This document shows, piece after piece, positions 16,194 through 58,273 of a stretch of 64,000 bases of DNA. Position 1 is the stretch's first letter. Each line of letters opens with the position of its first letter. The stretch comes from Deltaproteobacteria bacterium (lineage in GTDB: Bacteria; Desulfobacterota; Binatia; UBA12015): the NCBI GenBank assembly GCA_016874795.1, contig VGTG01000004.1, positions 11,734-75,733 on the forward strand, given 5' to 3'. Made by a program: the position numbers and the translations under genes. The notes beneath the pieces are model-generated. The model searched no databases and had not been told where the DNA came from. It worked only from the letters and a program-made list of their open reading frames with translations.

Positions 16194-16354
16194 TGACAGA
16201 CACTACCGGTGAAGGTCTTCCAGTCGACAGTCGCGTTCCACACGTGCTCAAAGCGCGACAGTGCCCAGGACCCGAGGCGCTCGTTGCGGTAGACCGGCGC
16301 TTCCTCACGAAGCCGCCGGTAGGCGGGGTAGGGGTCCTCGTGGATCTCCCACGA
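16194..16354 (-). pseudogene. Cytochrome P450 N-terminal stub (about 53 codons) truncated at the IS fragment
   Basis: Minus-strand frame gives SWEIHEDPYPAYRRLREEAPVYRNERLGSWALSRFEHVWNATVDWKTF then a stop. It closely parallels the N-terminus of the P450 at 50084-51265 (FSREIFDDPYPVYRRLRDEAPVYRCEEVGMWVLSRFEDVWSAL). Confidence 0.55.
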
Positions 16355-16616
16355 CGTCGTACGTGCCCGGACGAATCTCTCGCAGGCTGCTCGGATCGAA
16401 GCCCCACTCGCTCTTGGGCAACGTGACGACGGCGTTCAGGAACGGCGCGAACGCGGCACCCGCCTCCCACTGCCACGGCTGCATCTGGCTCCCAGGATCG
16501 AGGACCAGACGCGGGGCGCGCTCGAGCCAGCGCTTCGGCAGGTGCCTCTCGAAGACGTCAGGTGGCTCGATGATGTGATCGTCCACGCTCACGAGGATCA
16601 TGTCGTCGAGCTTCAT
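16305..16616 (-). pseudogene. Amidohydrolase-2 (PF04909-type) N-terminal stub, about 90 codons, joined out of frame to the P450 stub
   Basis: MKLDDMILVSVDDHIIEPPDVFERHLP...LREIRPGTYDV parallels the N-terminus of the intact amidohydrolase at 30364 (LVLVSVDDHLVEPPDMFERHVP...MREGCYDV). Homology stops at about 16352, where the sequence switches frame into P450 homology. Confidence 0.6.
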
Positions 16617-16653
16617 CGAAGGTCCTCCCTTGCCGTCTTCGGACCAGTCTTCG

Positions 16654-17460
16654 TCACTTCGCTCGGCCGCCCGTCTCCTGCATCATCCGCGCGAGGTGAG
16701 CCTGGAAGTCCTTGTGCGCGGCGACGGTGGTCGTCATGTCCGCCGACATCTGCTGGTGGATGCGGAAGCCCATCAGCTCCCAGGCGCGTTTGAGCAGAAG
16801 CTTGCACGCGGTGAGCGTCGTGACCGGACACATCGCGATCTGCGCGGCCATCTCCTCGACCGTCTCCTCGAGCTTGTCGCGCGGAACGACCTCGTTCACG
16901 ATGCCGAGCTCGAGCGCCTGCTGCGCGGTGAGCTTCCGGCGAAGGTAGAGGTACTCGGCCGCGCGCTTGTAGTTCATGAAGATCCACGGCTCGATCATCG
17001 TCTCCGCGCCCGGCAGGCCCATCAGGTACGTGTGCGGCATCTGGAACCACGCGTCCTCCGAGCAGACCGTGATGTCCGGGAGGAGCGCCCAGTACGATCC
17101 GCCGCCGGCGGCGTAGCCGTGGACCTGTGCGATCGTCGGCTTCGGGAACTCCCACAGCCGGAGCATCGGGTGCAGAAAGAGCTTCGTGTGTCCCTGCCAG
17201 GTCGTTCCTGTACGCTCGAGGTTCTCCTTGAACTCGGGATAGTCGCCGGTCGCGACGTGCCCGGAGGAGAAGCCTCGTGCGGTCGACTTGATGATCAGAA
17301 CCTTGACGTCGTAGTCGTACTCCGCGAGCCCTAGGGCCTTGTCGAAGGCCCACACCATCTCCGAGTCCTGCAGGTTGGCCTTCTCCGGCCAGTTCATGAT
17401 GAGCCGGGAAACGGCGCCGTCCTTCTCGTAGATCACTCGTCCCAGGTCTTGTCGTTCCAT
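16654..17460 (-). CDS. Enoyl-CoA hydratase/isomerase (crotonase) family
   Basis: MERQDLGRVIYEKDGAVSRLIMNWPEKANLQ... has a crotonase fold with oxyanion-hole region HGYAAGGG. The longer six-frame ORF upstream of the ATG is Arg/Ser-rich junk. Confidence 0.8.
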   Translation of the reverse strand: MERQDLGRVIYEKDGAVSRLIMNWPEKANLQDSEMVWAFDKALGLAEYDYDVKVLIIKSTARGFSSGHVATGDYPEFKENLERTGTTWQGHTKLFLHPMLRLWEFPKPTIAQVHGYAAGGGSYWALLPDITVCSEDAWFQMPHTYLMGLPGAETMIEPWIFMNYKRAAEYLYLRRKLTAQQALELGIVNEVVPRDKLEETVEEMAAQIAMCPVTTLTACKLLLKRAWELMGFRIHQQMSADMTTTVAAHKDFQAHLARMMQETGGRAK

Positions 17461-17575
17461 GGCATGCCTCCTAGTGAGACCAGAGGTCTCACAAATATAG
17501 GCGCGGATACAAGTCTTGCAATCCGTTTCAGATGCCAATAGCGTGCGGCGCGAGACCGACGGTCTCACCGCGCCA

Positions 17576-18691
17576 ATGGAATTCGACTCTCTTCCGTTGA
17601 TCTCCGCCGACAGCCACGTCGAGGAGCCGCGCGACCTCTGGGCGAAGAACCTGCCGCCGTCGCTGGTCGAGAATCTCGCGCCCGAGCTTCGCGATGGCCA
17701 CAGCCCTTCCGGCTCCTTCGCGGACAGGATCGGCGTCGAGAACTTGCAACGGATCGACGCGCTGACGCGCTCGGACGACGCCGTCGAGATGCAGTCGATG
17801 GCCGACCTCACGACCGATCCCGAGCGACGCCTCGCCGTCATGCGCCAGGACGGCATCGCGGGCGAGTGCATCTATCCGACGATGGGACTCTACGTCTGGA
17901 ACGCGGAGAGCCGCGAGGCCGGCGAGGCCGCGTGCCGGCTCTACAACGACTGGATCTTCGATCGGCTCGAGCGCCGATCTTCTCGCTTTCGCTGCGCTGC
18001 GATGATTCCTACGTGGGACGTCGGGGCCGCGATCGCCGAGATCCGTCGGACCGCGGCGATGGGGCTCGCTGCGGCGCTGCTGCCGCTCGTCGGGACGCCG
18101 GAGTACAACCACCGCGACTGGGAGTCGCTCTGGAACGAGCTCGACGAGATCGGAATGCCGGTCGTGATGCATCAGGGAACGGGTCACAGCATGCTTTTCT
18201 ATCGCGGCCCCGGGGCGGCCGTGGCGAACCTCCTCGCGACGCAGTCGATGGCTCCGCGGGGAGCGACGCTGCTCGCGACCTCGGGAGTGCTGGCCGCCCA
18301 TCCGGATCTGCACTTCGTATTCGTGGAGACCAACGCGAGCTGGCTCGCCTGGGCGATGAACACGGCCGACCACTACGACCGTGCCTTCCGTCAGTATCCG
18401 GGTTGGGTTCGACCCGAGCTGAGGGAGAAGCCAAGCGTTTACATGGCGCGCCAGATTCACGGCACGTTCCAGTACGACCCGGTCGCGGTTGCGAGCATCG
18501 CCCAGACGGGATCGGACCCGCTCTTGTGGGGTTCGGACTTCCCACATGCCGAGGGGACGTATCCACACTCGCGCGCCTCGGTGGCAGAGCAGTTCGCGGG
18601 CGTCGCCGAGGAGCAGGTGGCACGCATGGTCGGGGGCACCGCTGCGAAGCTCTTCGGGTTCGCGCCCGAGGTCTCGAACACACCCGTCTGA
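17576..18691 (+). CDS. Amidohydrolase-2 family (PF04909-like metal-dependent hydrolase)
   Basis: MEFDSLPLISADSHVEEP is a His-X-His metal motif, with a C-terminal WGSDFPH. It is paralogous to the 30364 gene. Confidence 0.8.
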   Translation: MEFDSLPLISADSHVEEPRDLWAKNLPPSLVENLAPELRDGHSPSGSFADRIGVENLQRIDALTRSDDAVEMQSMADLTTDPERRLAVMRQDGIAGECIYPTMGLYVWNAESREAGEAACRLYNDWIFDRLERRSSRFRCAAMIPTWDVGAAIAEIRRTAAMGLAAALLPLVGTPEYNHRDWESLWNELDEIGMPVVMHQGTGHSMLFYRGPGAAVANLLATQSMAPRGATLLATSGVLAAHPDLHFVFVETNASWLAWAMNTADHYDRAFRQYPGWVRPELREKPSVYMARQIHGTFQYDPVAVASIAQTGSDPLLWGSDFPHAEGTYPHSRASVAEQFAGVAEEQVARMVGGTAAKLFGFAPEVSNTPV

Positions 18692-19860
18692 TGCACGGCG
18701 CTGCTGCGATCGCAGGAATCGGCGAGTCCACCTACTACCGGCGGGGGGAGTCGCCGTACACCGAGTTCCAGCTTGCGTGCATCGCCATCCGGCGCGCCGT
18801 CGAGGATGCAGGTCTCGAGCTCGCCGACGTCGACGGCTTCGTGTCGTATCTGGATCAACGGAACAACCCCGTCCGCCTCGCCCGCGCTCTCGGCCTGAAG
18901 GAGCTTCGCTGGACGGGCATTCCGTGGGCCGGTGGCGGAAACAGCATGGCGGCGGCGGTGCAGGTCGCGGACGCCGCGGTCGCCGCAGGCTACGCGCGGC
19001 ACGTCGTCGTCTTCCGCGCGCTCGCGCAGGGGCAGTTCGGACGCTTCGGTCAGGCCGGAGGAAGCGGGGGCGGCGGGGGCGGCTACATGGGCGGGCCGTT
19101 CGCCTGGAACGGCACCTACGGCATTCTCACGCCCGCGCATCAGTGCGCCCTGCACGCGGCGCGATTCATGCACGATCACTCGATCTCGCAGGAGGCGCTC
19201 TGCGAGATCGCGCTCGCCTGCTACGCCAATGCGCAGCGGAACTCGCGTGCGCTGCGCTTCGGGAAGCCGCTCACGCGCGAGGAGTACCACGCCTCGCGCT
19301 GGATCGTGAAGCCGTTTCACCTCTACGACTGCTGTCCGGAGAACGACGGGGCTGCAGCCGCCGTCGTCACCACGAAGGAGCGCGCACGTGACCTGAGGCA
19401 TCGGCCGGCGGCGATCGTCGCGGCGGCTTCGGGGATCGGCCCGCCCTACGGCGTCTTCGACGGAGCGACGCTCGGGTCGGCTCATTACCGGCAGGTGGCG
19501 AAGCACCTCTGGGAGCACGCTGGCTGCGGGCCCGACGACGTCGACGTCGCCCAGTTCTACGAGAACTTCACCGGGACTGTCCTGATCGCGATGTGCGAGA
19601 TGGGCTTCTCCTCACCGGACGGGATCGAGGAGTTCGTCTCGGGCGGACGTCTCGTCGGCCCCGACGCCGCCCTTCCGTTCAACACGAGCGGAGGGAACAT
19701 CGGCGAGGCGTACATCCACGGTTTCGAGATGATCAACGAATCGGTGCGTCAGGTCCGCGGCGAATCCACGTGCCAGGTGAAGAGCGTGGAGCGCGCCCTC
19801 GTGGTTGCCGGGCCGGGCTACTGTCCCGGGAGCGCGGTGCTCCTCGGAGCGCCGCAATGA
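18691..19860 (+). CDS. Thiolase-like protein, SCP-x / nonspecific lipid-transfer-protein type
   Basis: About 390 aa with a thiolase fold. Start and stop overlap the neighbours (TGATG, ATGA). It is immediately followed by a DUF35 gene. Confidence 0.8.
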   Translation: MHGAAAIAGIGESTYYRRGESPYTEFQLACIAIRRAVEDAGLELADVDGFVSYLDQRNNPVRLARALGLKELRWTGIPWAGGGNSMAAAVQVADAAVAAGYARHVVVFRALAQGQFGRFGQAGGSGGGGGGYMGGPFAWNGTYGILTPAHQCALHAARFMHDHSISQEALCEIALACYANAQRNSRALRFGKPLTREEYHASRWIVKPFHLYDCCPENDGAAAAVVTTKERARDLRHRPAAIVAAASGIGPPYGVFDGATLGSAHYRQVAKHLWEHAGCGPDDVDVAQFYENFTGTVLIAMCEMGFSSPDGIEEFVSGGRLVGPDAALPFNTSGGNIGEAYIHGFEMINESVRQVRGESTCQVKSVERALVVAGPGYCPGSAVLLGAPQ

Positions 19861-20291
19861 AGCGCGTCCTCGGCGAGAGCTGGGCGGTGCCGAGCCTCGA
19901 TTCCCACAACCGCGACTTCTTCACGAAGGGCGTCCTGACGCTGCAACGGTGCACGCAGTGCAAGCACGTCCAGCATCCGCCCGAGGACGTCTGCGAGGCG
20001 TGTCAGGGTTTCGAGCTCGACGGCTTCGCGAGCGCCGGCGTCGGCCGGATCGAGAGCGTCGCCGTGGTGACGCAGTCGGTCCACCCGCTTCTCGCGGATC
20101 GCGTCCCGTACGCGATCGTCCTCGTTTCGGTCGAGGACGCGCCGGGCATCCTCGTTGCGGGCAATGTCGTCGGAAGCGACGCGGACGCGGTACGCATCGG
20201 TGATCGCGTCCGCGTCGTCTTCGAGGACGCGACCGACCCGAGGAGCGGGGAGAAGCTCGCGATCCCGCAGTGGGAAGTGATCGACGCATGA
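19857..20291 (+). CDS. DUF35 / OB-fold plus zinc-ribbon protein (thiolase-associated)
   Basis: CTQCKHVQHPPEDVCEAC is a C4 rubredoxin-like zinc ribbon followed by an OB fold. This is the characteristic partner of SCP-x thiolases. Confidence 0.75.
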   Translation: MKRVLGESWAVPSLDSHNRDFFTKGVLTLQRCTQCKHVQHPPEDVCEACQGFELDGFASAGVGRIESVAVVTQSVHPLLADRVPYAIVLVSVEDAPGILVAGNVVGSDADAVRIGDRVRVVFEDATDPRSGEKLAIPQWEVIDA

Positions 20292-22821: not shown

Positions 22822-22823
22822 GG

Positions 22824-23489
22824 ATGGCGGGTGCTTTCACCCGAGCCGGAAGGTCGCAACGGGCCTGGGAGGAGCGCGCGCTGGATCGCGTGCGGCAGCA
22901 AGCGCTCCAACGGGGACACCGGGTCGTCAAGGCCGCACGCGAGATCGTGAGCGAAGGGGGACTCGAGTCGCTTACGCTACGCGCGGTCCTTCGGAAGACC
23001 GGCCTCGCACGGCGCGCCTTCTACGCGCACTTCGAGAGCATGGACGACGTCCTCTTGGCTCTGTTCGAGGATACGATGGCTCACGGCGCCGCGCGGCTCC
23101 GGGAGCAGCTGGCGGGGATCGATGATCCGATCGTCGCGCTGGAGAGGCTCGTTCGTGCGATCGCGTCTGGCGCCCTGTCGTCCTCGGATCGCGTGTACAA
23201 CATCGCGATGACGCAGCAGCACGTCCGTCTCGCCGAGCACCGACCGGACGAGCTCCACGCCGCACACGCTCCGATGAACGAGCTCATCGCCGACGTTCTG
23301 CGCGCCGGGATCCAGGCCGGAGCCGTGCGCGAGGCGGACGCTTCGAGGCTCGCCGAGATCGTCCACGCGCTCATCTCGACCGAGGTGCACCGGAATCTCT
23401 ACCGCGGCGCCGACGACACCGAGTGGATCGACGACCTCTGGGAGTTCTGCCTCGGAGGGATCGGGCGCTCCACGCGGCGCCGTCGCTAG
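22824..23489 (+). CDS. TetR/AcrR-family transcriptional regulator
   Basis: N-terminal HTH LTLRAVLRKTGLARRAFYAHFESMDDV. Confidence 0.8.
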   Translation: MAGAFTRAGRSQRAWEERALDRVRQQALQRGHRVVKAAREIVSEGGLESLTLRAVLRKTGLARRAFYAHFESMDDVLLALFEDTMAHGAARLREQLAGIDDPIVALERLVRAIASGALSSSDRVYNIAMTQQHVRLAEHRPDELHAAHAPMNELIADVLRAGIQAGAVREADASRLAEIVHALISTEVHRNLYRGADDTEWIDDLWEFCLGGIGRSTRRRR

Positions 23490-23526: not shown

Positions 23527-24462
23527 TCAGAGCTGCGACGCCACGTCGTGCATGAAGCCGGCGGCGAGATCGAGAAAACGTGCGCGCGACTGCACCGCAC
23601 CGCTTCCCGGCAGGGCGAAGCTCACGCCCGCGTAGGTCACGCCGATCTCGCGGAGCCGTCCTGCCTGCTCGACGTAGGCGGACGCTTCGAACCCGGGCGC
23701 TCCGTAGCTGCCGACGCCAATCGGTCCGAACATCACGTCGAGTGGTGCCGTCCGTCCGACCTGCGCGGCGTGACTCCGTGCGTACTCGAGCCGCGCCTGC
23801 AGATCGTCCAGGCTCTCGAGCGGCGCCGAGCGAACGAAGCGCGCGAACGCCTTCGGTGCGGGCATCGGAATCCACCCGTCGCCGTGCTCGACGGCGCGGC
23901 GCAGCGCGCGGCGCGTGTTGCCGCCGATCCAGACGGGAGGGTGCGGCCGGCGCGCCGGCCTCGGCAACGCCACGTGGCCGTGTGCTTCGAAGCCCTCTCC
24001 CGTCACGTCGATCGTCTCGCCGCTCCAGACGCGCTTCATGACGTCGAGCGACTCGTCGAGACGCTCGTTGCGGGTGTCGAAGCTCGTACCGAGCGCACGG
24101 AACTCCGGCTCGAGGTAGCCGGCGCCGGTGCCGAGGATCACGCGGCCGCCCGACAGCGAGTCGAGCGAAGCGATCGCCTTGGCCGCGAGGAACGGATTGC
24201 GGTAGCCGACGATGTAGAGGTTCGTCATCAATCGAAGACGCGTCGTCGCCGTCGCTGCCACCGCGAGCACGACGGTCGGCTCGAGAGCGTGATGACCGCC
24301 CCTCTGGAGGAACTTCTCGGGCGGGATCGGATGGTCCGTGACGAAGACGCCCTCGTAGCCGAGCGACTCTGCGGCTCGCGCCATCTCCGCGACGGCTTCG
24401 GTCGTCCCGAACTCCTCGTGCCGCTCTACCTCGTCGGTCGGAAGTCCCAGGATGAAACGCAT
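23527..24462 (-). CDS. Luciferase-like monooxygenase (LLM) family oxidoreductase, likely F420-dependent subclass
   Basis: TIM-barrel LLM motifs (VFVTDHP..., LGTGAGY). Assignment to the F420 subclass is by family resemblance only. Confidence 0.75.
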   Translation of the reverse strand: MRFILGLPTDEVERHEEFGTTEAVAEMARAAESLGYEGVFVTDHPIPPEKFLQRGGHHALEPTVVLAVAATATTRLRLMTNLYIVGYRNPFLAAKAIASLDSLSGGRVILGTGAGYLEPEFRALGTSFDTRNERLDESLDVMKRVWSGETIDVTGEGFEAHGHVALPRPARRPHPPVWIGGNTRRALRRAVEHGDGWIPMPAPKAFARFVRSAPLESLDDLQARLEYARSHAAQVGRTAPLDVMFGPIGVGSYGAPGFEASAYVEQAGRLREIGVTYAGVSFALPGSGAVQSRARFLDLAAGFMHDVASQL

Positions 24463-28297: not shown

Positions 28298-28489
28298 GTA
28301 GAGCACCTCGGGGCGGACGCGTTCCCGAACGAGGGAAGCCTCGCATCGCGATCGCTGCGAAAGATCACCTGCGGCGGAGCCGCTCGACGAAGAAGCTCGG
28401 CGGCTCCTGGACGTGACTGTCCGCCGAGATCAAGGGCAAGCTGTCGATATCCACGACTCCTCCTTCGCTCGCGTCCGGGAAATCCTGGC

Positions 28490-29071
28490 TCACGTGCTCT
28501 TCCGTTTCCCGGAGTTCGACCCGGGGGCGCGCCCCTCGAGCTCCTTCCAGAATCGATCCCAGCTCGGCCACGCTTCGGGAAGGCGTCCCGTCCCGAGGCC
28601 GTCATCGCCGATCCCGGCTCCCGCGCGCGGACGCTCCAGCGCGTCCACCATGAACCATCGGTGGAGCTTGCGGCGGACGAAGTACCAGCGGCCGTCGCGC
28701 CGCTCGTAGCGGTCCCAGTACTGGACGTACCCGTTGCCCCAGTCGCGGTGACGGTCGATCTCCTCGCGACAGTAGACGACGCCGCTGGCGTGATCGGCGT
28801 CCTCGAAGTCGAAGACGTGGTTCGCGACGAGGTGGATGCTCGTACCGACGCGCGCGAGCGCTTCCAGGAACCACGCACGGAGCGCTTCGCGTCCAGAGGC
28901 GTCGCGTCCGACGCGCACGTCCTCCACGAAGAGCTCGACCAGATCGTCGAGGTTCCGCGTGTCGATCGCGAGAGCGTAGCGATGCGGGAGCTGGCGAATC
29001 TCCTCGACGCTCTCGAGGCGATCGATCCGCGCAGCGAGGTCGCGGGGGCGATGAGGGTCGTCTCGGGACAT
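28490..29071 (-). CDS. SnoaL-like / NTF2-fold protein
   Basis: About 190 aa with alpha+beta cone-fold composition, adjacent and divergent to a P450. The start was chosen at the internal ATG (MSRDDPH). Confidence 0.55.
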   Translation of the reverse strand: MSRDDPHRPRDLAARIDRLESVEEIRQLPHRYALAIDTRNLDDLVELFVEDVRVGRDASGREALRAWFLEALARVGTSIHLVANHVFDFEDADHASGVVYCREEIDRHRDWGNGYVQYWDRYERRDGRWYFVRRKLHRWFMVDALERPRAGAGIGDDGLGTGRLPEAWPSWDRFWKELEGRAPGSNSGKRKST

Positions 29072-29126
29072 CGAGCCTCCGATGCAGGCTTTCGCCATAT
29101 TGTGCGATGAAACAAAAGTTGATTAT

Positions 29127-30329
29127 ATGTCCGATGTGTCGGTTTCCGGCAACTTCGACTTCCGCCCGGACGACGCCGGATGGTACCTCGGCGATCCGCA
29201 CGCCGCGTACCGGCGGCTCCGTCGCGAGGCTCCGTTGCACTGGTATGAGCCCGATCGCTTCTGGTTTCTCACCAAGCACGCCGACGTCTTCGCGGTGTCG
29301 AAGGACCCGGCGACCTTCTGCAGCAGCAAGGGGTTCCGGATCCACGACAACCTGCGCACGGGGGGCGGCATCGAGGGGATTCCGCCGTCGATCCTCGGCA
29401 TGGACCCTCCCGATCACACGCGATACCGAGGACTCGTCAGCCGCTTTTTCACGCCGCGCTCCATGAACCACATCGAGGAGCGGATTCGCGAGATCGCCCG
29501 CGAGGCGCTCGATCGGATCGAGACCGGAAAGGTCGTCGACTTCGTCGAGCTCGTCTCGGTCCCGCTACCCGTTCTCGTGATTGCGGAGCTCCTGGGCGTT
29601 CCGCTGGAAGATCAGAAGAAGTTCAAGGAGTGGTCCGACGATCTCATCGCGGCGAACGACGGGAACATGGAGGCGGTCGGACGCGTCGCGGACCTCTTCG
29701 CGTACATGATCGGGCATGCACTCGATCGACGCAGTGCGCCGCGGGACGATCTCCTCACGGTCGTCGCGACGGGCGAGCCGAACGGTCGCCTTCTGGACGA
29801 CATGGAGCTCGGTATCTTCGGCGTCTCGCTCCTCGGTGCGGGGAACGAGACCACGCGCAATGCGATCTCCGGCGGCGCGATCGCGCTCATGGAGAACCCC
29901 GAGCAACGGGCCCTTCTCGTCGAAGACCCGTCGCGGATCGCAAGTGCGGTCGAGGAGATCGTGCGCTGGGTTTCGCCGATCAAGTCCTTCGCGCGTACCG
30001 CCACGTGCAATACCGAGATCCGGGGCCAGCGGATCGCGGCAGGGGATTTCGTGGTGCTGAGCTACACCTCCGCGAACCGCGACGAGGAGGTCTACGGTCC
30101 CACCGCTGAAGAGCTCGACGTTCGTCGTACCGGAGCGGCAGCACATCTGGGCTTCGGCGTGGGACAGCACTTCTGCCTGGGAGCCCATCTCGCGCGGCTC
30201 GAGCTCAAGATCCTCTTCGAGGAGCTGCTCGCGCGCTTTCCGCGATTCGAGCTCGCCGGAGAAGTGCAGAGGCTTCGCTCCACGCTCATCAACGGCGTCG
30301 AGCACCTCCCCGTCGTCTTCTCGTCCTGA
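29127..30329 (+). CDS. Cytochrome P450
   Basis: Heme-thiolate loop FGVGQHFCLGAHLARLE, I-helix GAGNETT, K-helix EEIVRW. Confidence 0.85.
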   Translation: MSDVSVSGNFDFRPDDAGWYLGDPHAAYRRLRREAPLHWYEPDRFWFLTKHADVFAVSKDPATFCSSKGFRIHDNLRTGGGIEGIPPSILGMDPPDHTRYRGLVSRFFTPRSMNHIEERIREIAREALDRIETGKVVDFVELVSVPLPVLVIAELLGVPLEDQKKFKEWSDDLIAANDGNMEAVGRVADLFAYMIGHALDRRSAPRDDLLTVVATGEPNGRLLDDMELGIFGVSLLGAGNETTRNAISGGAIALMENPEQRALLVEDPSRIASAVEEIVRWVSPIKSFARTATCNTEIRGQRIAAGDFVVLSYTSANRDEEVYGPTAEELDVRRTGAAAHLGFGVGQHFCLGAHLARLELKILFEELLARFPRFELAGEVQRLRSTLINGVEHLPVVFSS

Positions 30330-45479: not shown

Positions 45480-45500
45480 GCGGCCGGGCGAGTGAAACCG

Positions 45501-46412
45501 ATGAGCGACTCGAAGAAGTATGGAGCCGACCTCGAAGTCGACGAGGACCCCGAGTCCTGGGTCCTCTACGAGACGCTCGAAGGCGGGATCGCACGCGTCA
45601 CGCTGAATCGCCCGCATCGGAAGAACGCGATCCTTTCTCCGGACATGCACGTGATTCTCGCGGAGCGTCTCGCACGAGCGAACGACGACGACGAGGTCAA
45701 GGTGATCGTGCTCGCGGGCGCGGGGAGCGACTTCTGCTCCGGCGACGACGTGCGCCGCATGCCCGTCGAGCGGGCAGGTCTCAAGAAGGGAAAGAAGCTG
45801 CCGCAGACGGCGCGCATCCGGAACGCAGTGCGGCTGGACGAGAACCTGCGAAATCTTCTCTTCACCTCGAAGACCGTCATCGCGGCTTGCCAGGGCGCCG
45901 TCATCGGCGCGGGCTTGAACCTGGCGCTCGCCGCCGATCTCGTCGTCGCGGCGGACACGGCGTACTTCGCGCGTCCGCAGGCACGCATCGGATTCGCCGG
46001 GTTCAGCACGGCCCTGCCCCTCGTGCTCCTCAAGATGGGTGTCAACCGCGGCTACGAGGCGATGATCACCGGCCGGAAGGTGAAGGCAGCGGAGCTGAAG
46101 GACTGGGGCGTCGTGAACTCCGTGGTCCCCGAGGCGGATCTCGCCGGTGAGGCTCTTCGCTACGCGAAGGCGATCGCGAGCCACTCGGCGGACGGCCTCA
46201 TGATCGGCAAGCACGGCCTGCACATGTTCTGGGAGCTGATGGGCATGTCGACGTACGGCGCCTTCGTGAAGATGGCTCACCCGCTCTTCACGAACCTCGT
46301 CTGGCGCGATGACGAGTTCAACTTCCTCCGCGAGCGAAACGGGCGCGGCGCCAAGGAGGCGCTCGCCGAGCTGAACAAGCGGTGGAAGGACCTGGGCTTC
46401 GACGAAGAGTGA
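45501..46412 (+). CDS. Enoyl-CoA hydratase/isomerase family
   Basis: ARVTLNRPHRKNA...CQGAVIGAGLNLALAADL is crotonase. Confidence 0.8.
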   Translation: MSDSKKYGADLEVDEDPESWVLYETLEGGIARVTLNRPHRKNAILSPDMHVILAERLARANDDDEVKVIVLAGAGSDFCSGDDVRRMPVERAGLKKGKKLPQTARIRNAVRLDENLRNLLFTSKTVIAACQGAVIGAGLNLALAADLVVAADTAYFARPQARIGFAGFSTALPLVLLKMGVNRGYEAMITGRKVKAAELKDWGVVNSVVPEADLAGEALRYAKAIASHSADGLMIGKHGLHMFWELMGMSTYGAFVKMAHPLFTNLVWRDDEFNFLRERNGRGAKEALAELNKRWKDLGFDEE

Positions 46413-46416
46413 TCTC

Positions 46417-47364
46417 GTGAACGCCGAATATGCCCGGCTCGAGCCGCGCACGGTGACCACCGGGCTCGAGTTCCCCGAGGGCCCGGTCGCATTGCGCGAC
46501 GGCAGCGTGCTGCTGAGCGAGGTCCGCGCCGGCCGGATCACGCGAGTCGACCCGGATGGAGCGAAGCGAACCTGCGCCGAAGCGGGCGGCGGGCCGAACG
46601 GTGCCGCCCTCGGACCTGACGGCGATCTCTACGTTTGCAACAACGGGGGCTCGCAGTGGGCGAAGCGCGCTTGGCCGTATGCGGATCCCGGAGCGATCGA
46701 GCTCCTCCTGCCCCTCGGTGCCGAGCCGGGCGCGTGCATTCAGCGTGTGGACGTCGACTCGGGGCGGGTCGAGAGCGTCTACGCCGCCTGTGAGGGAGAG
46801 CCTCTTCGCCGGCCCAACGACATCGTGTTCGACGCCGAGGGCGGCTTCTGGTTCACCGACAGCGGCGGCGGGACCTCGCGCGTCCGACACGCGACCGGTG
46901 TTCTCTACGCGACGCCGGACGGCTCTCGCATCGAGGAGGTGATCCACCCGCTCGAGATGCCGAACGGCATCGGACTGAGCCCCGACGGCGAGACGCTCCA
47001 CGTCGTGGAGACGCGCACGCGAAGGTTGTGGGCGTGCTCTCTCGCAGGTCCGGGCCGAGTGAAATCCAGGCGCTTGCTCGCCACGATCCCGTCGGGCGGT
47101 CCCCTGAACGTCGGCGGCTGCGATTCTCTCTGCGTCGATGCACGCGGGAACGTTCTCGTCGCGACTCTCGGCAGCGGCGGCGTGACCGTCGTCTCGCCAG
47201 CGGGAGAGGTCGTGGCGCACGTGCCTCTCGAGGATCCGATGACCACGAACGCGTGCTTCGGGGGGCCGGACCTCCGGACGTTGTTCGTCACGGCGGGCGC
47301 GACGGGCGCACTCGTCGCGTTCGACGGCTGGCCGGTCCCCGGTCTGCCGCTCGCCTTCGGGTGA
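46417..47364 (+). CDS. SMP-30/gluconolactonase/LRE-like beta-propeller hydrolase
   Basis: LEFPEGPV..., NDIVFDAEGGFWFTD, PNGIGLSPDGETL are six-bladed propeller signatures. GTG start. Confidence 0.75.
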   Translation: MNAEYARLEPRTVTTGLEFPEGPVALRDGSVLLSEVRAGRITRVDPDGAKRTCAEAGGGPNGAALGPDGDLYVCNNGGSQWAKRAWPYADPGAIELLLPLGAEPGACIQRVDVDSGRVESVYAACEGEPLRRPNDIVFDAEGGFWFTDSGGGTSRVRHATGVLYATPDGSRIEEVIHPLEMPNGIGLSPDGETLHVVETRTRRLWACSLAGPGRVKSRRLLATIPSGGPLNVGGCDSLCVDARGNVLVATLGSGGVTVVSPAGEVVAHVPLEDPMTTNACFGGPDLRTLFVTAGATGALVAFDGWPVPGLPLAFG

Positions 47365-47368
47365 ATCG

Positions 47369-48499
47369 ATGGATTTCGGATTCGACGAGCAGCAGAAGGC
47401 ACTCGCCGCAAGTGTTCGTGACGTGATCGATTCGAGATTCGGGATGGCCTACGTCCGCGGGATGCTCGACGATCCGCGGGGATTCTCGCTCGAGTTCTGG
47501 GCGGAGGCGGCGAAGCTCGGCTGGCTCGGACTTCTCGTCGAGGAGAGATACGGCGGGCTCGGGCTCGGTCCCCTCGAGATGGCCGCGGTGCAGCAGGAGC
47601 TCGGGCGAGGCGTGGTCCCCGGGCCGTACCTCGCGTCGGCGGTGCTCGCGAGCGTCGCTCTTCAGCGGTACGGCTCGGAGCGACAGAAGAAGCGCTGGCT
47701 CCCGTCGCTGGCGGCAGGCGACGAGATCGCCACTGTGGTTTTCCCGGAGGCTCATCGCGCGTCGGAGGAGGGCTTCGTCGGCTTCACCGCGGAGCGTCCC
47801 TCGCGAACCGCGTTTCGCGTGACGGGCGAGCAGCGCTTCGTCCTCGACGCGCACGTGGCGGATCTCGCCGTCGTGCCCGCGATCGCGGAGGAGGGAGTCA
47901 CACTCTTTCTGGTCGAGACATGCTCTCCGGGCGTAACCACGCAGCCGATCCGCACGATCGACGACACGCGGCGTCTGGCGACGATGCGTTTCGATGGGAT
48001 CGAGGTCGAAGCGAATCAGATTCTGGGAGAAGCGGGCGCGGGTCTCGTGCTCTTGGAGGCGGTCGCGGACGTCGGTCGCGTGGCGTTGTCCGCCGAGATG
48101 GTGGGCGGCGCCGAGCGAGCGCTCGAGATGTGCATCGATTACGCGCGCGTCCGCGAGCAATTCGGGAGGCCGATAGGCAGCTTCCAGGCGATCCAGCACA
48201 AATGCGCCGACATGCTCGTCCGCGTCGAAGGGGCTCGCGCGATGACTCTTGCGGCAGCAACTTCACTCGCACACGGAGACGCGGACGCGACTTCCGACGC
48301 GGGCATCGCAAAGTCGTGGTGCGGGGAGGCGTACCGGATGGTGACGACGGAGGGTGTGCAAATCCACGGCGGTCTCGGCTTCACATGGGATCTCGACATG
48401 CACCTGTTCTACAAGCGCGCCAAGTCGAGCGAGACGTCCCTTGGAGATGCGCGCTTCCATCGTGCACGCCTGGCCGAGCGGGCACTCGGGGAGAGCTGA
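47369..48499 (+). CDS. Acyl-CoA dehydrogenase
   Basis: MDFGFDEQQ..., FGRPIGSFQAIQHKCADM, IHGGLGFTWD. Confidence 0.85.
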   Translation: MDFGFDEQQKALAASVRDVIDSRFGMAYVRGMLDDPRGFSLEFWAEAAKLGWLGLLVEERYGGLGLGPLEMAAVQQELGRGVVPGPYLASAVLASVALQRYGSERQKKRWLPSLAAGDEIATVVFPEAHRASEEGFVGFTAERPSRTAFRVTGEQRFVLDAHVADLAVVPAIAEEGVTLFLVETCSPGVTTQPIRTIDDTRRLATMRFDGIEVEANQILGEAGAGLVLLEAVADVGRVALSAEMVGGAERALEMCIDYARVREQFGRPIGSFQAIQHKCADMLVRVEGARAMTLAAATSLAHGDADATSDAGIAKSWCGEAYRMVTTEGVQIHGGLGFTWDLDMHLFYKRAKSSETSLGDARFHRARLAERALGES

Positions 48500-48919
48500 A
48501 TGGCGAAGCGTGCGATCGAGCCGGGGCTCCTACGTCTCCCGGACGGCGAGGGTCGTGAGCTTCGGCTCTGCGCGAATCGTTGTGACGGCTGCGGCGTCGT
48601 GTTCCATCCGCCGCGCCCCGTCTGTCTCGCTTGTCATGGACGAGCCATGAGCGATGCACCTCTCGAGGGGGCGGGTACCCTGTACGCGTTCACGCGTGTG
48701 GCGATGGCGATGCGTCCCGGAATGCGCACGGAGCGCGGCTACTGGGTCGCGCACGTGGACCTCGACGGCGGACCGCGCGTGCAGGGTCTTCTCGCTCCCG
48801 ACGTTGCCGAGCCGCGCATCGGCATGCGGCTGCGACTCGGGATCGAGACCGTCCGCGTCGAGGAGAGCGGGGAGGAGATCGTGGTGCACCACTTTGCCGC
48901 GGACGAGGCTCGAGCGTGA
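48500..48919 (+). CDS. DUF35 / OB-fold plus zinc-ribbon protein (thiolase-associated)
   Basis: CANRCDGCGVVFHPPRPVCLAC zinc ribbon followed by an OB fold. The ATG directly abuts the upstream stop. Confidence 0.75.
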   Translation: MAKRAIEPGLLRLPDGEGRELRLCANRCDGCGVVFHPPRPVCLACHGRAMSDAPLEGAGTLYAFTRVAMAMRPGMRTERGYWVAHVDLDGGPRVQGLLAPDVAEPRIGMRLRLGIETVRVEESGEEIVVHHFAADEARA

Positions 48920-50073
48920 AGACCGAGAACATCGCTCTCCTCGGCACGGCGATGACGCGTTTCGCCGATCATCGCGACCGCACGCTCTTCGAGCTCGCCA
49001 CCGAGGCGGGGCTTGGCACTCTGACGGATGCCGGAATCGACCTGCGCGACGTGGGTGAAGCGTACGTCGGCTCGATGATGGCGCCGCCGATGCTCGGGGT
49101 GCGGATCTTGAAGCAGCTCGGGCTGACGGGGCTGCCCGTCGTGACGATCGAGGCGGCTTCCGCATCGGGACTCGTGGCTCTGCGCGAAGCGTCGTTCGCG
49201 GTCTCGAGCGGCCGTTGCGAGGTCGCGCTCGCCTTGACCTACGAGCACGCGATGCAGCGCCTGCCCGGGAGCGGAGGCATGACGCCGGGCTACGAGACGT
49301 TGATGGCGTCCCCCGCCTCGTTCGCGCTCTGGGCGAGCCGCCGGATGCACGAGCGCGGAACCAAGCCCGAGCACCTGGCGAAGCTCGCCGCCAAGAACTG
49401 GAACGCGGCGCGCGAGAACCCGCTCGCATATCACCGCGCCGATCACGTCGTCACGCCGCAGGAAGTCCTGGCCTCGCCGAGCGTCGCTTCGCCGTTGACG
49501 CAGATGATGGGAGCGCCGATGGGCGGAGGGGCTGCGGCAGTTCTTCTCGCGAGCCCGGACCGCGTACGGCGCCGGCGTCCCGGCGAGCCGCTCGTGCGCG
49601 TGCTCTCGTCGTCCCTGGTGACCGAGTCCTGGGATCCCGAATGGATCGCACTCGGACCCGCGGTCGGACCGCCCGGAATGACCGCCGACGCCGCCCGCCG
49701 GGCGTTCGAAGCCGCCGGTGTCGGTCCGGAGGACGTGGACGTCGCCTACGTGCACGACTCGTGGATCAACGAGGAGCTCGAGTACTACGAGCAGCTCGGC
49801 CTCTGCGCGCCGGGCGAGGCCGAGAAGCTCGCGGAGGAAGGCACCACCGCGCTCGGCGGAAGAATCCCCGTGAACGTCGACGGTGGACTCGTCGCGCGCG
49901 GACACCCGATCGGCCCGACGGGCCTCGCCCAGGTGCACGAGATCGGGCTACAGCTCCGCGGGCGAGCCGGCAGGCGTCAAGTCGAAGGAGCGACGACCGC
50001 GCTGGCGCAGCTCGTCGGCGGAGGCAGCTCGGCGATCGTCTGTTTGTTTCAGCGCGACGGTCGCGTCGCGTGA
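48916..50073 (+). CDS. Thiolase-like protein, SCP-x / lipid-transfer type
   Basis: About 385 aa with a thiolase fold (IEAASASGLVAL, HPIGPTGL). The GTG start overlaps the DUF35 stop. Confidence 0.8.
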   Translation: MKTENIALLGTAMTRFADHRDRTLFELATEAGLGTLTDAGIDLRDVGEAYVGSMMAPPMLGVRILKQLGLTGLPVVTIEAASASGLVALREASFAVSSGRCEVALALTYEHAMQRLPGSGGMTPGYETLMASPASFALWASRRMHERGTKPEHLAKLAAKNWNAARENPLAYHRADHVVTPQEVLASPSVASPLTQMMGAPMGGGAAAVLLASPDRVRRRRPGEPLVRVLSSSLVTESWDPEWIALGPAVGPPGMTADAARRAFEAAGVGPEDVDVAYVHDSWINEELEYYEQLGLCAPGEAEKLAEEGTTALGGRIPVNVDGGLVARGHPIGPTGLAQVHEIGLQLRGRAGRRQVEGATTALAQLVGGGSSAIVCLFQRDGRVA

Positions 50074-52072: not shown

Positions 52073-52098
52073 GTCCCGATTCCTCTCCGCCGCGGCGC

Positions 52099-56333: not shown

Positions 56334-56680
56334 CGACGACCGACTTCGGCCCGTACGTGCACTACGAGAAGGAAGACGCGGTCGCTCGCATCGTCCTCGA
56401 CGACCCGAAGCGAGCCAACGCGCAGTCGTTCCGCGAAGCGAGCTGCAGAAGACGGCCGAGGATCTCGCGGCGAAGATCGCGCGCGCGCCCGGATCGACGC
56501 TCGTGGCGACGAAGACGACGATCCGGCGCGCGTGGGAGCTGATGGGCATGCGGATCCATCAGCAGATGTCGACCGACATGGTCGCGATCGTGGCCGGGCA
56601 CACGGACTTTCAGACGAAGCTGAGAGAGCTCGCGGCTTCCGGGAAGAAGCCGCGCGAGGTGACGAAGGAGGAGAAGTAGC
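56330..56680 (+). pseudogene. Enoyl-CoA hydratase remnant with an internal deletion of about 150 codons plus a frameshift
   Basis: N-terminal 38 aa (MTTTDFGPYVHYEKEDAVARIVLDDPKRANAQSFREAS) in one frame, joined directly to the C-terminal region in another frame (LQKTAEDLAAKIARAPGSTLVATKTTIRRAWELMGMRIHQQMSTDMVAIVAGHTDFQ). The C-terminus closely parallels the intact paralog at 16654-17460 (KRAWELMGFRIHQQMSADMTTTVAAHKDFQ). Confidence 0.7.
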
Positions 56681-57130
56681 TCAGGCGCCCGCGCGCGAGC
56701 CTCGCTCGATCAGCTCGATGCGGGTGCCGTCGGGATCGAGAGCGAAGAGGCCGCGGTTGCCGCTGCGAAACGCGGATCGCGTGCTCTGCAGCACGCGGCC
56801 GCCGTGTTTCTCGATCGATTCGGCGACGGCATCGAGTGTTTCGACGGCGAAGCTGAGGTGTGTCAGCCCGAGCTCGTTCATCGCTCGCCGCTCGCCCGTT
56901 CCTCGATGGCCGGGCGCGTCGTAGTGCAGGAGCTCGATGCGCCAACCGTCGCGCTCCAGGTACACCAACCGAAGGCGCGTGCCTTCGACCTCGAGGATCC
57001 GGGCGGTCGCGTCGTCGCCGACGTCGAGTCGACCAACCTCGCGAAAGCCGAGAGCTTCGCGATAGAACGCGAGGGATCGATCGAGATCGCTGACACAGAT
57101 GCCGAGATGCGTGAGCCGGAGTTCTGTCAC
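56681..57130 (-). CDS. VOC-family (glyoxalase/bleomycin-resistance/dioxygenase fold) protein
   Basis: RLTHLGICVSDLDRSLAFYREALGF...LGLTHLSFAVETLD has duplicated beta-alpha-beta-beta-beta modules. GTG start. Confidence 0.75.
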   Translation of the reverse strand: MTELRLTHLGICVSDLDRSLAFYREALGFREVGRLDVGDDATARILEVEGTRLRLVYLERDGWRIELLHYDAPGHRGTGERRAMNELGLTHLSFAVETLDAVAESIEKHGGRVLQSTRSAFRSGNRGLFALDPDGTRIELIERGSRAGA

Positions 57131-57190
57131 GGTCGTCGCCCGCTCCTTCAGAATTGACAATGTGACGAAAGTTGTTCCATCATCCCTACC

Positions 57191-58273
57191 ATGCGCGCAG
57201 CCATCTTTCTCGAGCAAAACCGTCCCTTGTCGGTCGAGGATGTGCAGGCAATCGATCCGGGGCCGCGCGACGTCGTCGTGCGCGTCACGGCGAGTGGGGT
57301 GTGTCACTCCGACGTTCACGTGGTGAGCGGGGCGCTTCCCGTTCCACCGCCCGCGATCCTCGGCCACGAGGGCTGCGGGATCGTCGAGGCGGTCGGCCGA
57401 GAGGTCACGCGCGTGAGCGTCGGCGATCGCGTGATCGGGTCTTTCATCCCGGCATGCGGGAGCTGCTGGTTCTGCCTCCGTGATCAGTCGCATCTGTGCG
57501 CGAACACCTACGGCGTGATGGGAGCGCCTCGGGCATCGCGCAAGGACCGCACCCCGCTCGTGGCCATGGCGGGTCTCGGCACGTTCGCCGACAGGATGAC
57601 CTGCGACGAGATGTCGCTGGTGAAGATCGAGACCGACGTGCCCGACGAGCAGCTCGCTCTCATCGGCTGTGGTGTGACGACCGGCGTCGGCGCTGCTCTG
57701 AACACCGCAAACGTGAGGGCCGGTGACACGGTCGCCGTCATCGGTTGCGGGGGTGTGGGTCAGTCGGTCATCCAGGGCGCTCGGATCGCGGGAGCGGCGC
57801 GCATCATCGCCATCGATCCGGTCGAGATGAAGCGCACCGCCGCGATCTCCCTCGGCGCGACGGACGTGATCGACCCGGGCCAGGGCAATGCGGTCGAGCA
57901 GGTGCAGGCACTCACCGCGGGAATCGGCGTCGACTACGCGTTCGAGGTGATCGGAACTCCTGCCACTGTCGAGCAGGCGTTCGCGATGGCACGGAACGGC
58001 GGCGCGGCCGTGGCGGTCGGCGTTTCGCGCTTCGACCAGAGCATCACCATCCCCAGCTTCCCGCTCGTGCTCTCCGAGAAGCGTCTTCTCGGCTGCATGT
58101 ACGGCTCGGCCCAGGTCCGGCGCGATTTCCCGCGCCTCGTGAGCCTGGTCGAGCAGAAGAAGCTCGACCTCGAGCACATGGTCACGCGCACGATGCCGCT
58201 CGACGACATCAACGAGGCTTTCCGGGCGATGAAGGCCGGAGAGGTGATTCGCTCGGTTCTCGTCCAGCAGTGA
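57191..58273 (+). CDS. Zinc-dependent alcohol dehydrogenase (MDR family)
   Basis: GVCHSDVH, GHEGCGIVEAVG, structural-zinc Cys cluster CGSCWFCLRDQSHLC, cofactor loop GCGGVG. Confidence 0.85.
   Translation: MRAAIFLEQNRPLSVEDVQAIDPGPRDVVVRVTASGVCHSDVHVVSGALPVPPPAILGHEGCGIVEAVGREVTRVSVGDRVIGSFIPACGSCWFCLRDQSHLCANTYGVMGAPRASRKDRTPLVAMAGLGTFADRMTCDEMSLVKIETDVPDEQLALIGCGVTTGVGAALNTANVRAGDTVAVIGCGGVGQSVIQGARIAGAARIIAIDPVEMKRTAAISLGATDVIDPGQGNAVEQVQALTAGIGVDYAFEVIGTPATVEQAFAMARNGGAAVAVGVSRFDQSITIPSFPLVLSEKRLLGCMYGSAQVRRDFPRLVSLVEQKKLDLEHMVTRTMPLDDINEAFRAMKAGEVIRSVLVQQ

Follow-up and report, generated by a model that had tools for sequence, protein, structure and literature searches.

A tmRNA-integrated island in an uncultured high-GC bacterium carries a candidate CoA-thioester pathway for diterpenoid-like acids

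The stretch of DNA analysed here, 64,000 nucleotides long and hereafter called the window, covers positions 11,734 to 75,733 of contig VGTG01000004.1, a metagenome contig of 97 kb, from an uncultured bacterium of the class Binatia (labelled Deltaproteobacteria bacterium; GTDB lineage Desulfobacterota, Binatia, UBA12015; assembly GCA_016874795.1). It contains a long block of catabolic genes that turned out to be the cargo of an island inserted at the transfer-messenger RNA (tmRNA) gene. All coordinates below are window positions. The G+C content of 68% crowds lists of open reading frames (ORFs) with spurious frames, and genes were called from the GC bias at third codon positions (GC3). All ORFs between 15.3 and 58.3 kb, as well as the flanks, were scanned with Pfam, and 30 island proteins were tried against the equivalog cut-offs of NCBIfam. 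An initial annotation had described a CoA-dependent, beta-oxidation-type cluster for some bulky lipid, and the gene calls and domain content support both this general description and the continuity of the block, from about 16.2 to 58.3 kb. Most of its inventory could be recovered by Pfam, namely six acyl-CoA dehydrogenases (ACADs) including one overlapping pair (36058-38372), two thiolase-like/DUF35 pairs, three cytochromes P450, two PF04909 proteins, two AMP-forming ligases, one Rieske oxygenase, two luciferase-like (LLM) oxidoreductases, three short-chain dehydrogenases/reductases (SDRs), one Zn-dependent alcohol dehydrogenase and one fused E1 alpha-beta. Some counts had to be lowered. The four family-III CoA-transferase domains belong to three genes and not four, the announced tandem fusion being real (38369-40486); Pfam and tblastn yielded three enoyl-CoA hydratases instead of four, together with the single remnant (56425-56622), and Pfam three TetR regulators instead of four. 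A tblastn search with the island proteins found no further TetR, hydratase or CoA-transferase inside the block, which has no gap long enough for one. Conversely, several genes were absent from the earlier list: those for a SnoaL_4 protein, a lactonase of the SMP-30/gluconolactonase type, a lipoyl protein that stands alone, a small VOC/glyoxalase protein and an E2 catalytic domain (with a stop codon in frame). The scars of a P450 gene and of two PF04909 genes were likewise missing from it, and the nature of the block as island cargo had not been recognized. Catabolic-type enzymes, a lipoyl carrier and regulators account for all genes called in the block; one functional class at such density across 42 kb cannot be due to chance.

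The block includes a set of five plus-strand genes, g17 to g21, each overlapping the next by 1-4 nt. The second of these, g18 (18691..19860, +), encodes a protein of the thiolase superfamily whose best match in the PDB is the steroid aldolase Ltp2 (6OK1_A, 1.4e-71), the following match reaching only 6.8e-39. In the alignment with 6OK1, the equivalents of Tyr294 and Tyr344 are retained (in FYENF and GEAYIHG, respectively) and the cysteine nucleophile is gone. In TcLtp2, Tyr294 and Tyr344 are catalytic, and His296 of the YDHF motif contributes to the oxyanion hole (PMC12329534). The YDHF motif is absent from g18 and from all of its 79 metagenome homologues, which carry YENF in its place (80 of 80 sequences), the second tyrosine being conserved in 79 of 79. 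Judged by this motif, the YENF aldolases are a distinct subfamily, in which the asparagine might substitute for His296, and g18 is predicted to be an Ltp2-type retro-aldolase. Its stand-alone DUF35 partner, g19 (19857..20291, +; PF12172 and PF01796), combines a Cys4 zinc ribbon (CxxC-x10-CxxC) with an OB fold. The two following genes, g20 (20288-21532, +) and g21 (21529-22821, +), encode family-III CoA-transferases (PF02515) with NCBIfam matches that all remain under the cut-off; they are translationally coupled and their products probably form a heterodimer. A TetR regulator gene, g22 (22890..23489, +; PF00440), comes next and is conserved beside the CoA-transferase pair in two related metagenome loci, L009 and L022.

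In the second thiolase-like/DUF35 pair, the DUF35 gene (48500-48919, +) precedes g45 (48916-50073, +), which matches an SCP2-thiolase (6HSJ, 2.6e-54) and has a serine at both catalytic cysteine positions: S82 occupies the site of the nucleophile and S282 lies in HDSW, aligned with the HDCF motif of SCP2-thiolase. A serine at the nucleophile position (ENASA[ST]G) is also found in the approximately 10 nearest cluster representatives at 50% identity, and these residues would define g45 and its relatives as a cysteine-free, DUF35-partnered clade. The DUF35 proteins, 139 and 144 aa long, are both free-standing. The suggestion of an Ltp2-like thiolase with a DUF35 partner holds for g18, which keeps both catalytic tyrosines; in the other pair, the thiolase-like protein has lost both catalytic cysteines. 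As g18 has no cysteine nucleophile and g45 has serine at both positions, the island is devoid of a canonical cysteine thiolase, and any thiolysis would need host enzymes.

Upstream of the aldolase gene, g17 (17543..18691, +; PF04909 at 1.1e-23) is the first of two genes previously read as amidohydrolases; the second, g30 (30364..31683, +; PF04909 at 1.5e-24), lies about 12 kb further. The best solved structure for g17 is PtmU3 (6OMP, 7.6e-55, with a strong full-length alignment), and g30 matches DitZ (8UYR) at 7.7e-100 over residues 5-406, that is, over its whole length. The amidohydrolase-related dinuclear oxygenases (AROs) are defined by an N-terminal D-x-H and a C-terminal D-x-P-H-x-D/E motif that hydrolases and decarboxylases of PF04909 do not have (PMC13154177, PMC10811679). 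Both motifs are present in g17 (DSH at residue 23 and DFPHAE at 332, with a terminal Glu as in PtmU3) and in g30 (DDH at residue 14 and DYPHSD at 334). The second motif of g30 reads E-C-D-Y-P-H-S-D, with a Glu two residues ahead, so that the protein keeps the two second-sphere residues described for DitZ, the Asp within D-D-H and the upstream Glu (PMC13154177). We predict that g17 is a PtmU3-like ARO and g30 a DitZ-like, diiron-type dinuclear hydroxylase. The motifs and the structural matches led us to reject a function as hydrolases, lactonases or decarboxylases; the number of PF04909 proteins given by the initial annotation stands and their role as amidohydrolases does not. Known members of the ARO group are PtmU3, DitZ, AibH2 and SfbO; DitZ is a diiron-dependent diterpenoid hydroxylase for which dehydroabietic acid was used as substrate, and PtmU3 is likewise termed a diiron-dependent hydroxylase (PMC13154177). 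Both reference enzymes act on diterpenoids. PtmU3 is said to be a diiron monooxygenase with a TIM-barrel fold that hydroxylates C-5 of diterpenoid CoA esters before A-ring cleavage in the formation of platensimycin and platencin. A metabolite without an assigned enzyme, 5-hydroxy-dehydroabietic acid, has been reported. No redox partner is encoded near the two genes, in agreement with what is known of high-potential AROs (PMC13154177).

Homologues of these genes tend to occur in each other's company. More than 600 homologues of g17 were found at E <= 1e-30, often paired with a DitZ-like gene and surrounded by genes for ligases, hydratases, SnoaL_4 proteins and alpha-only Rieske oxygenases. A DitZ-like gene (42-45% identity to g30) directly precedes a close homologue of g17 (64-70% identity) in L006 (8722-11125) and L007 (7387-11125), an adjacency which indicates that tandem ARO pairs recur; in L007 a third PF04909 gene adjoins the pair. 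A metagenome scan with g18 produced 80 loci at 59-89% identity, in which the aldolase, DUF35 and CoA-transferase unit reappears, frequently accompanied by the DitZ-like ARO and by a P450 of the CYP125/CYP108 clade. A DUF35 gene follows the aldolase gene in 62 of 62 related loci, the CoA-transferase pair comes after these two genes in 15 of the 27 loci with enough sequence, and an ARO is present in 17 of 32 aldolase loci of at least 6 kb. The closest loci share a core composed of g18-g22 and g29-g30 at 75-88% identity. In L009 and L021, homologues of g29-g30 (81-88% identity) directly adjoin the aldolase operon, the g29 homologue lying beside the DitZ-like gene (81-83% identity), and genes g23-g28 look on this account like an insertion in the present island.

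Comparable gene sets also exist outside metagenomes. A plasmid of Rhodococcus rhodochrous GD02 combines a DitZ-like ARO, a P450, a DUF35 protein, a CaiB pair and a lipid-transfer protein, and a plasmid of Massilia putida has a DitZ-like ARO gene directly before a thiolase-like gene with lipid-transfer genes adjacent, without P450, DUF35 or CaiB pair. These plasmid and soil metagenome clusters include MaoC hydratases (and, in Rhodococcus, FAD oxidoreductases), which are not encoded on the island, whereas the g33-g36 operon and the E1/E2 module of the island are lacking in them. Similar uncharacterized ARO clusters are already known on plasmids, and all component families have been described. 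It is the combination that is new, with two diterpenoid-type AROs, YENF aldolases, cysteine-free thiolase-like proteins, three large and three small ACAD subunits, and a tmRNA island of an uncultured lineage as the carrier.

The DitZ-like gene is preceded by a P450 gene, g29 (29127..30329, +), whose product has its best match in a reconstructed CYP125 ancestor (2.5e-100). The match to P450terp (6.5e-78) outranks those to all extant CYP125s (about 1e-68 to 1e-61); the enzyme lies in the CYP125/CYP108/CYP124 clade. The second P450, g32 (33284-34522, +; PF00067), is CYP144-like (5HDI, 1.8e-76), and the third, g46 (50084-51265, -; identified by Pfam), has only generic matches in the PDB. The Rieske oxygenase alpha subunit, g40 (43360-44748, +; PF00355 and PF00848), displays the CxH...CxxH and HxxxxH motifs and finds its best structural matches in the alpha subunit of phthalate 3,4-dioxygenase, carnitine monooxygenase and biphenyl dioxygenase (1e-28 to 1e-22). 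The KshA structures reached only 2e-5 to 4e-4 over the Rieske domain, in contrast to these classical oxygenase alpha subunits, and the proposed KshA identity was rejected by this search, the catalytic domain being PF00848. The families nearest to g40 are monooxygenases of the alpha-only kind, GbcA and CntA among them, and neither a PF00866 beta subunit nor a ferredoxin was detected by Pfam between 15.3 and 58.3 kb. An SDR gene, g41 (44745-45479, +; Pfam), is coupled to the Rieske gene.

Other oxidoreductases and accessory proteins complete this part of the inventory. The LLM protein g23 (23527..24462, -; PF00296) belongs to an F420-dependent family (TIGR03619, 242 bits against a cut-off of 167) and is the sole protein among the 30 tested to reach an NCBIfam cut-off. 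Next to it, g24 (24490-25140, -; PF00440 and PF17754) is a TetR regulator with an MftR-type C-domain; such an F420-dependent family and such a domain are cofactor associations better known from Actinobacteria. The second LLM protein, g26 (26018-27097, +; PF00296), is a luciferase-like oxidoreductase or monooxygenase for which no NCBIfam cut-off was reached. The SnoaL_4 protein of NTF2 fold, g28 (28490..29098, -; PF13577), has counterparts near AROs in L006, L007, L008 and L027. Besides g41, the SDRs are g38 (41313-42218, +; PF00106; with 41313 taken as the start, the profile match opens at residue 1) and g47 (51269-52009, -; Pfam), whose start is uncertain. The lactonase gene is g43 (46417-47364, +; Pfam), and the Zn-dependent alcohol dehydrogenase gene, g52 (57191-58273, +; PF08240 and PF00107), closes the block. 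The small VOC/glyoxalase-fold protein (56681-57130, -; PF00903; 149 aa, a single domain) is under the NCBIfam cut-offs, which give no support to a methylmalonyl-CoA epimerase or to an extradiol dioxygenase, and both assignments were discarded.

The enzymes expected to act on CoA esters are distributed over the whole block. The three enoyl-CoA hydratases are of crotonase type (g16, 16654..17436, -, PF00378, under all NCBIfam cut-offs; g25, 25137-25931, -, PF00378; g42, 45492-46412, +, Pfam). The six ACADs fall into three large subunits resembling PimC and ChsE4 and three small subunits resembling PimD and IpdE2, a division on which family matches and all-against-all BLAST concur. The large type comprises g27 (27107-28297, +; PimC-large as best family, 229 bits, under the cut-off), g35 (37152-38372, -; Tcur3483 and ChsE4 at 1e-60, PimC as best family) and g48 (52099-53259, -; PimC-large as best family); the small type comprises g34 (36058-37155, -; PimD and IpdE2 as best families), g39 (42236-43282, -; best matches PimD-small and IpdE2) and g44 (47369-48499, +; IpdE2 under the cut-off), the domains of g34, g35, g44 and g48 being assigned by Pfam. 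This balance suggests three ACAD heterotetramers, only one of which would come from adjacent genes. That pair, g34/g35, appears to belong to the heteromeric family that includes ChsE4-ChsE5; the PimC model scores equally well as those of ChsE/IpdE type, all of them under the NCBIfam cut-offs.

The overlapping ACAD genes are part of a minus-strand operon, g36-g35-g34-g33 (34535..40486), that begins with the fused two-domain CoA-transferase g36 (38369-40486, -; Pfam). The C-terminal half of g36 resembles one subunit of benzylsuccinate CoA-transferase (9FN0_B, 1e-37) and the N-terminal half the other (9FN0_A, 5e-21). The last gene, g33 (34535-36061, -; Pfam), encodes one of the two acyl-CoA ligases; the other, g31 (31680-33287, +; PF00501 and PF13193), is coupled to g30 and is under the cut-off of all NCBIfam models. 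Sub-threshold matches of the ligases point to FadD3 and to the steroid-24-oyl-CoA synthetase models. A TetR regulator gene, g37 (40607..41257, -; PF00440), lies upstream of the operon. When a genome collection was scanned with g36, a single close relative was found, at 70% identity, in L003, a metagenome-assembled genome (MAG) of Gemmatimonadota. This locus contains, in order, genes for a TetR regulator, the fused transferase, the large and small ACADs, ligases and an E1/lipoyl module (62-81% identity); the order of g36-g35-g34-g33 is the same (62-77%) and g37 is 81% identical. A second operon, on the plus strand, consists of g42, g43, g44, the DUF35 gene and g45 (45492..50073).

The 2-oxoacid-dehydrogenase-type module is composed of the fused E1 alpha-beta (53318-55342, +), a free lipoyl protein of 79 aa (55339-55578, +) and an E2 catalytic-domain gene (55575-56333, +), all identified by Pfam. 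The E2 is split between the lipoyl protein and the catalytic gene, which starts in an ATGA overlap at 55575, and the subunit-binding domain is absent. The catalytic gene is interrupted by an in-frame TGA at 55656, within the conserved LSxIRRxIA stretch; frames and stop were read directly from the sequence. As the E2 of L003 is split in the same way with an intact LSxIRRxIA motif, the TGA is probably a nonsense mutation.

This entire set of genes is the cargo of a horizontally acquired island of about 46.4 kb (14.2-60.6 kb) located at the 3' end of the tmRNA gene. The tmRNA gene, ssrA (13878..14236, +), was identified by ARAGORN and by Rfam (RF00023, 182 bits, E = 1.6e-72), and its 3' end (about 14233-14236) forms the proximal junction. 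It is abutted by the remnant of a serine recombinase (14136..15332, -) that retains only the Pfam domains PF07508 (Recombinase) and PF13408 (Zn-ribbon). The N-terminal catalytic resolvase domain is missing, and the ORF is truncated at 15332 by a fragment of a Mutator-family (IS256-like) transposase (15312..16148, +; PF00872, profile positions 132-370 of 379). The island is probably no longer mobile. The distal junction is marked by an imperfect direct repeat of the tmRNA 3' end (60578..60602, +; 22/25 nt), located 46.4 kb away, which is the sole other match to this end in the window (0 expected from 100 shuffles). The bases following the distal repeat, CTTTT, are similar to the native tmRNA flank, CTTTC, of a related locus with the same left-flank synteny (L090, PanBC 75% identical), and those following the tmRNA gene of the window itself, GTGTT, are unlike it. 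GC3 is 0.854 for 37 island genes against 0.896 for 14 flank genes (p = 2.5e-5). In L090 (19456-21651), a different element stands straight after the tmRNA gene; it encodes an excisionase-like HTH_17 protein and a putative integrase with an Arm-DNA-binding domain. The tmRNA gene is an integration hot spot in this lineage.

Within the island, four gene scars indicate earlier rearrangements, as judged from their tblastn alignments: the N-terminus of a P450 (16208-16354, -; g46 residues 9-57, 63% identity), which is spanned by the DNA repeat D3; the N-terminus of a DitZ-like oxygenase (16353-16619, -; g30 residues 2-88, 43% identity, E = 8e-18); the N-terminal 26 codons of a PtmU3-like ARO (28377..28454, -; g17 residues 12-37, 58%, E = 9e-5); and the C-terminal 66 codons of an enoyl-CoA hydratase (56425..56622, +; g16 residues 183-248, 59%, E = 1e-21). 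Just inside the distal junction, a BrnT-family RNase toxin (59627-59935, -; PF04365 at 6.5e-24) and a helix-turn-helix (MqsA-like) antitoxin (59337-59630, -; PF13560 and PF01381) form a type II pair. The segments at 58.3-59.3 kb and 59.9-60.6 kb contain no recognizable genes and have the lowest GC in the window.

The tmRNA gene is preceded by smpB and by genes for a histidine kinase and for phosphate transport. A single protein of 596 aa (4891-6681) unites PanB and PanC and is followed by PanD; the nearest named relative of the fusion is in a 'Deltaproteobacteria bacterium' MAG (63% identity), followed by Acidobacteria (about 49%). The window opens with an IclR gene. In the two relatives L089 (1012-5080) and L090 (737-4821), the genes for both subunits (alpha and beta) of electron transfer flavoprotein (ETF) and a Fer4/CCG-domain protein, a probable ETF-oxidizing iron-sulfur protein, lie just upstream of this IclR gene, and the likely electron acceptors of the island ACADs may accordingly be encoded just outside the window. 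Beyond the distal junction are a gene (60728-63340) for an M4 peptidase of thermolysin type, 870 aa long and equipped with thrombospondin type-3 repeats, and the start of another family-III CoA-transferase gene (63724-64000), the rest of which lies past the end of the window.

The sequences show which genes and motifs are present, how similarities rank, where genes of an operon overlap and which genes occur together; catalytic activities, the order of steps and the substrate are inferred. The reading that we favour, with a probability only slightly above one half (roughly 55%), is that this mosaic island encodes an aerobic CoA-thioester pathway whose substrate is a carboxylic acid that is bulky, alicyclic and methyl-branched. 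This acid would most likely be a resin-acid-type diterpenoid or another, related terpenoid with several rings, and not a steroid. The initial annotation had left sterols, hopanoids, terpenoids and alkyl-aromatic compounds open, and among these the evidence now favours the terpenoid option. In this scheme the P450s, one of them of the CYP125/CYP108/CYP124 clade, would oxidize C-H bonds of the hydrocarbon skeleton. The carboxyl group could be activated by the two ATP-dependent ligases or by the heteromeric family-III CoA-transferases (the g20-g21 pair and the fused, BbsEF-like g36). The DitZ-like and PtmU3-like AROs would then introduce a hydroxyl group at a hindered, unactivated carbon in the position beta to the carboxyl group or thioester, giving a beta-hydroxyacyl-CoA that cannot be oxidized to a ketone. 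The Ltp2-type aldolase bound to DUF35 may cleave this product by a retro-aldol reaction, either opening a ring or removing a short acyl-CoA. Beta-oxidation-like cycles would be run by three predicted alpha2beta2 ACADs, the three crotonase-type hydratases and the three SDRs, and the remaining rings and fragments may be processed by the LLM oxidoreductases (one of F420 type), the lactonase, the alpha-only Rieske oxygenase and the 2-oxoacid-dehydrogenase-type module. The steps of activation, of ARO and aldolase action, and of ring and fragment processing rest partly on sequence evidence.

The closest precedent for the central step is PtmU3, which shares with g17 the fold and the D-S-H and D-x-P-H-x-E metal motifs. 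The logic is also alike, since PtmU3, in the step reported for it, would hydroxylate beta to a thioester before the ring is cleaved. PtmU3 is biosynthetic, whereas the context of g17 is catabolic and couples it to an Ltp2-type aldolase with DUF35 and to a CoA-transferase pair. It is tempting, if clearly more speculative than the choice of substrate, to see in the operon of ARO, YENF Ltp2-like aldolase, DUF35 and heteromeric CoA-transferase an undescribed, thiolase-independent device for C-C cleavage, which might supply the missing A-ring-opening step of resin-acid and diterpenoid catabolism and be widespread in soil bacteria other than Proteobacteria.

Several observations weigh against a diterpenoid acid as the substrate or against a working pathway. 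The hallmarks of abietane degradation, DitA1A2A3, the extradiol enzyme DitC and the FAH-family proteins DitD/H/M, are absent by Pfam from 15.3-58.3 kb, and the island encodes no ferredoxin, reductase or transporter. The nonsense codon in E2 and the decayed scars imply that part of the island may be non-functional. Apart from the F420-type LLM protein, no NCBIfam equivalog cut-off was reached, so that each specific activity is a prediction. The regiochemistry of DitZ was not found stated in the literature searched. A steroid side chain, too, would be compatible with the aldolase of Ltp2 type, the ChsE-like ACAD and the P450 of the CYP125 clade. Finally, the ARO is directly upstream of the aldolase in only 9 of 43 related loci, and three contexts of close g17 homologues have no adjacent aldolase; obligatory synteny of the two was rejected on these grounds, and the coupling of hydroxylase and aldolase appears to be frequent but not obligatory.

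The strongest competitor, although we consider it rather unlikely, is that there is no single pathway and that independent catabolic modules and paralogues with different substrates, some of them non-functional, have accreted on a decaying island. The modules do exist separately elsewhere: L003 has g37-g36-g35-g34-g33/g31 with the E1-lipoyl genes, and L009 and L021 join g18-g22 to g29-g30 without g23-g28. The four scars, the transposase remnant and the E2 nonsense codon testify to decay, and three separate TetR regulators accompany at least seven transcription units, which are spread over both strands. Nevertheless, the modules complement each other enzymatically (activation, hydroxylation, cleavage and beta-oxidation), the same combination of families is found together on unrelated replicons, and three large and three small ACAD subunits can pair only if distant genes cooperate. 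Accretion also overlaps with a diterpenoid-type pathway; the two are partly compatible and not exclusive.

It is less probable still that the block is a cluster for the side chain and rings of steroids (cholesterol, phytosterols or bile acids), in which CYP125-like oxidation, CoA ligation, ChsE dehydrogenation, hydration and Ltp2 cleavage would be completed by KshA ring opening. The resemblance is genuine for the side chain. The nearest relatives of g18, g35 and g29 are Ltp2, the ACAD subunits Tcur3483 and ChsE4, and the reconstructed CYP125 ancestor, respectively; g34, g39 and g44 match IpdE2 under the cut-off, and the sub-threshold matches of the ligases are to steroid enzymes. The steroid side-chain system and the island share an aldolase of Ltp2 type that has both catalytic tyrosines, its Cys4 DUF35 partner, overlapping genes for a heteromeric ACAD, and a P450 of the same broad clade. 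Yet the aldolase carries YENF instead of YDHF and its DUF35 is free-standing instead of hydratase-fused, no MaoC hydratase (ChsH/Shy) is present, the hydratases being crotonase-type, and the beta-hydroxyl group that arises by hydration in the steroid system is proposed to come from an oxygenase here. The ring-degradation signature put forward earlier could not be confirmed: no domain types of KstD, HsaA-D, IpdAB (family-I CoA-transferase) or FadA5/6 were detected by Pfam in any ORF of 15.3-58.3 kb, and the Rieske protein is not KshA-like. Moreover, g29 scores P450terp above any extant CYP125, both PF04909 proteins match diterpenoid hydroxylases, and the steroid equivalogs of NCBIfam are all far under cut-off. 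An Ltp2/DUF35 pair, paired ACADs, a P450 and a Rieske oxygenase are by themselves insufficient to call a cluster steroid-degrading.

Scarcely better placed, and in our view marginally less probable than the steroid cluster, is a canonical abietane cluster of dit type, which would degrade dehydroabietic acid via dioxygenation of the aromatic ring and meta-cleavage. According to a published gene table, the dit cluster of Pseudomonas abietaniphila includes an amidohydrolase, ORF4, beside the P450 DitQ, as well as CoA ligases, an ACAD, a sterol-carrier-like protein and TetR. On the island, a DitZ-type PF04909 oxygenase gene likewise adjoins a P450 gene (g29-g30), with a CoA ligase gene beside them, and a Rieske alpha gene is followed by an SDR gene; CoA ligases, ACADs, a sterol-carrier-like (SCPx-type) protein, TetR regulators and SDRs are common to both by family, not by orthology. 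The dit cluster is thought to be mobile (PMC13063091). On the other hand, DitA1A2A3, the DitB/C meta-cleavage enzymes and the FAH-family proteins of the dit cluster are not found on the island, where there is no Rieske beta subunit, ferredoxin, two-domain extradiol dioxygenase or equivalent of the FAH-family DitD/H/M, and the closest families of its Rieske protein are alpha-only monooxygenases, including GbcA and CntA. The island in turn goes beyond the dit cluster with its PtmU3-like ARO, heteromeric CoA-transferases, three large and three small ACAD subunits, LLM enzymes, lactonase and E1/E2 module, and its host belongs to an uncultured lineage that does not look proteobacterial.

A Bbs-like beta-oxidation of arylalkyl- or alkyl-succinates, as in anaerobic hydrocarbon degradation, can practically be dismissed: the halves of g36 are nearest to the two benzylsuccinate CoA-transferase subunits, BbsB is among the matches of g45, and the Bbs operon (BbsEF, BbsAB; BbsA-H overall) offers the same association of a heteromeric family-III CoA-transferase and a DUF35-bound thiolase-superfamily enzyme with ACAD, hydratase and SDR, but on the island one transferase is fused, both thiolase-like cleavage enzymes have lost their catalytic cysteines, six O2-dependent oxygenases (three P450s, two AROs and one Rieske) make the pathway oxygen-dependent, no glycyl-radical enzyme is encoded, and the NCBIfam Bbs scores are all far under cut-off.

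Few steps in the bacterial degradation of resin acids have an assigned enzyme, and only DitQ and DitA have been directly tied to specific steps (PMC13063091). If the proposed logic of hydroxylase and aldolase holds, it would offer a testable mechanism by which an alicyclic ring that is fully substituted can be opened and neither a thiolase nor a ring-cleaving dioxygenase is required, and would provide a role for many proteins now annotated as 'amidohydrolase' or 'lipid-transfer protein'. The reach of Ltp2-type aldolases would then extend beyond steroids, and such pathways would travel on tmRNA-targeted islands in uncultured soil lineages.

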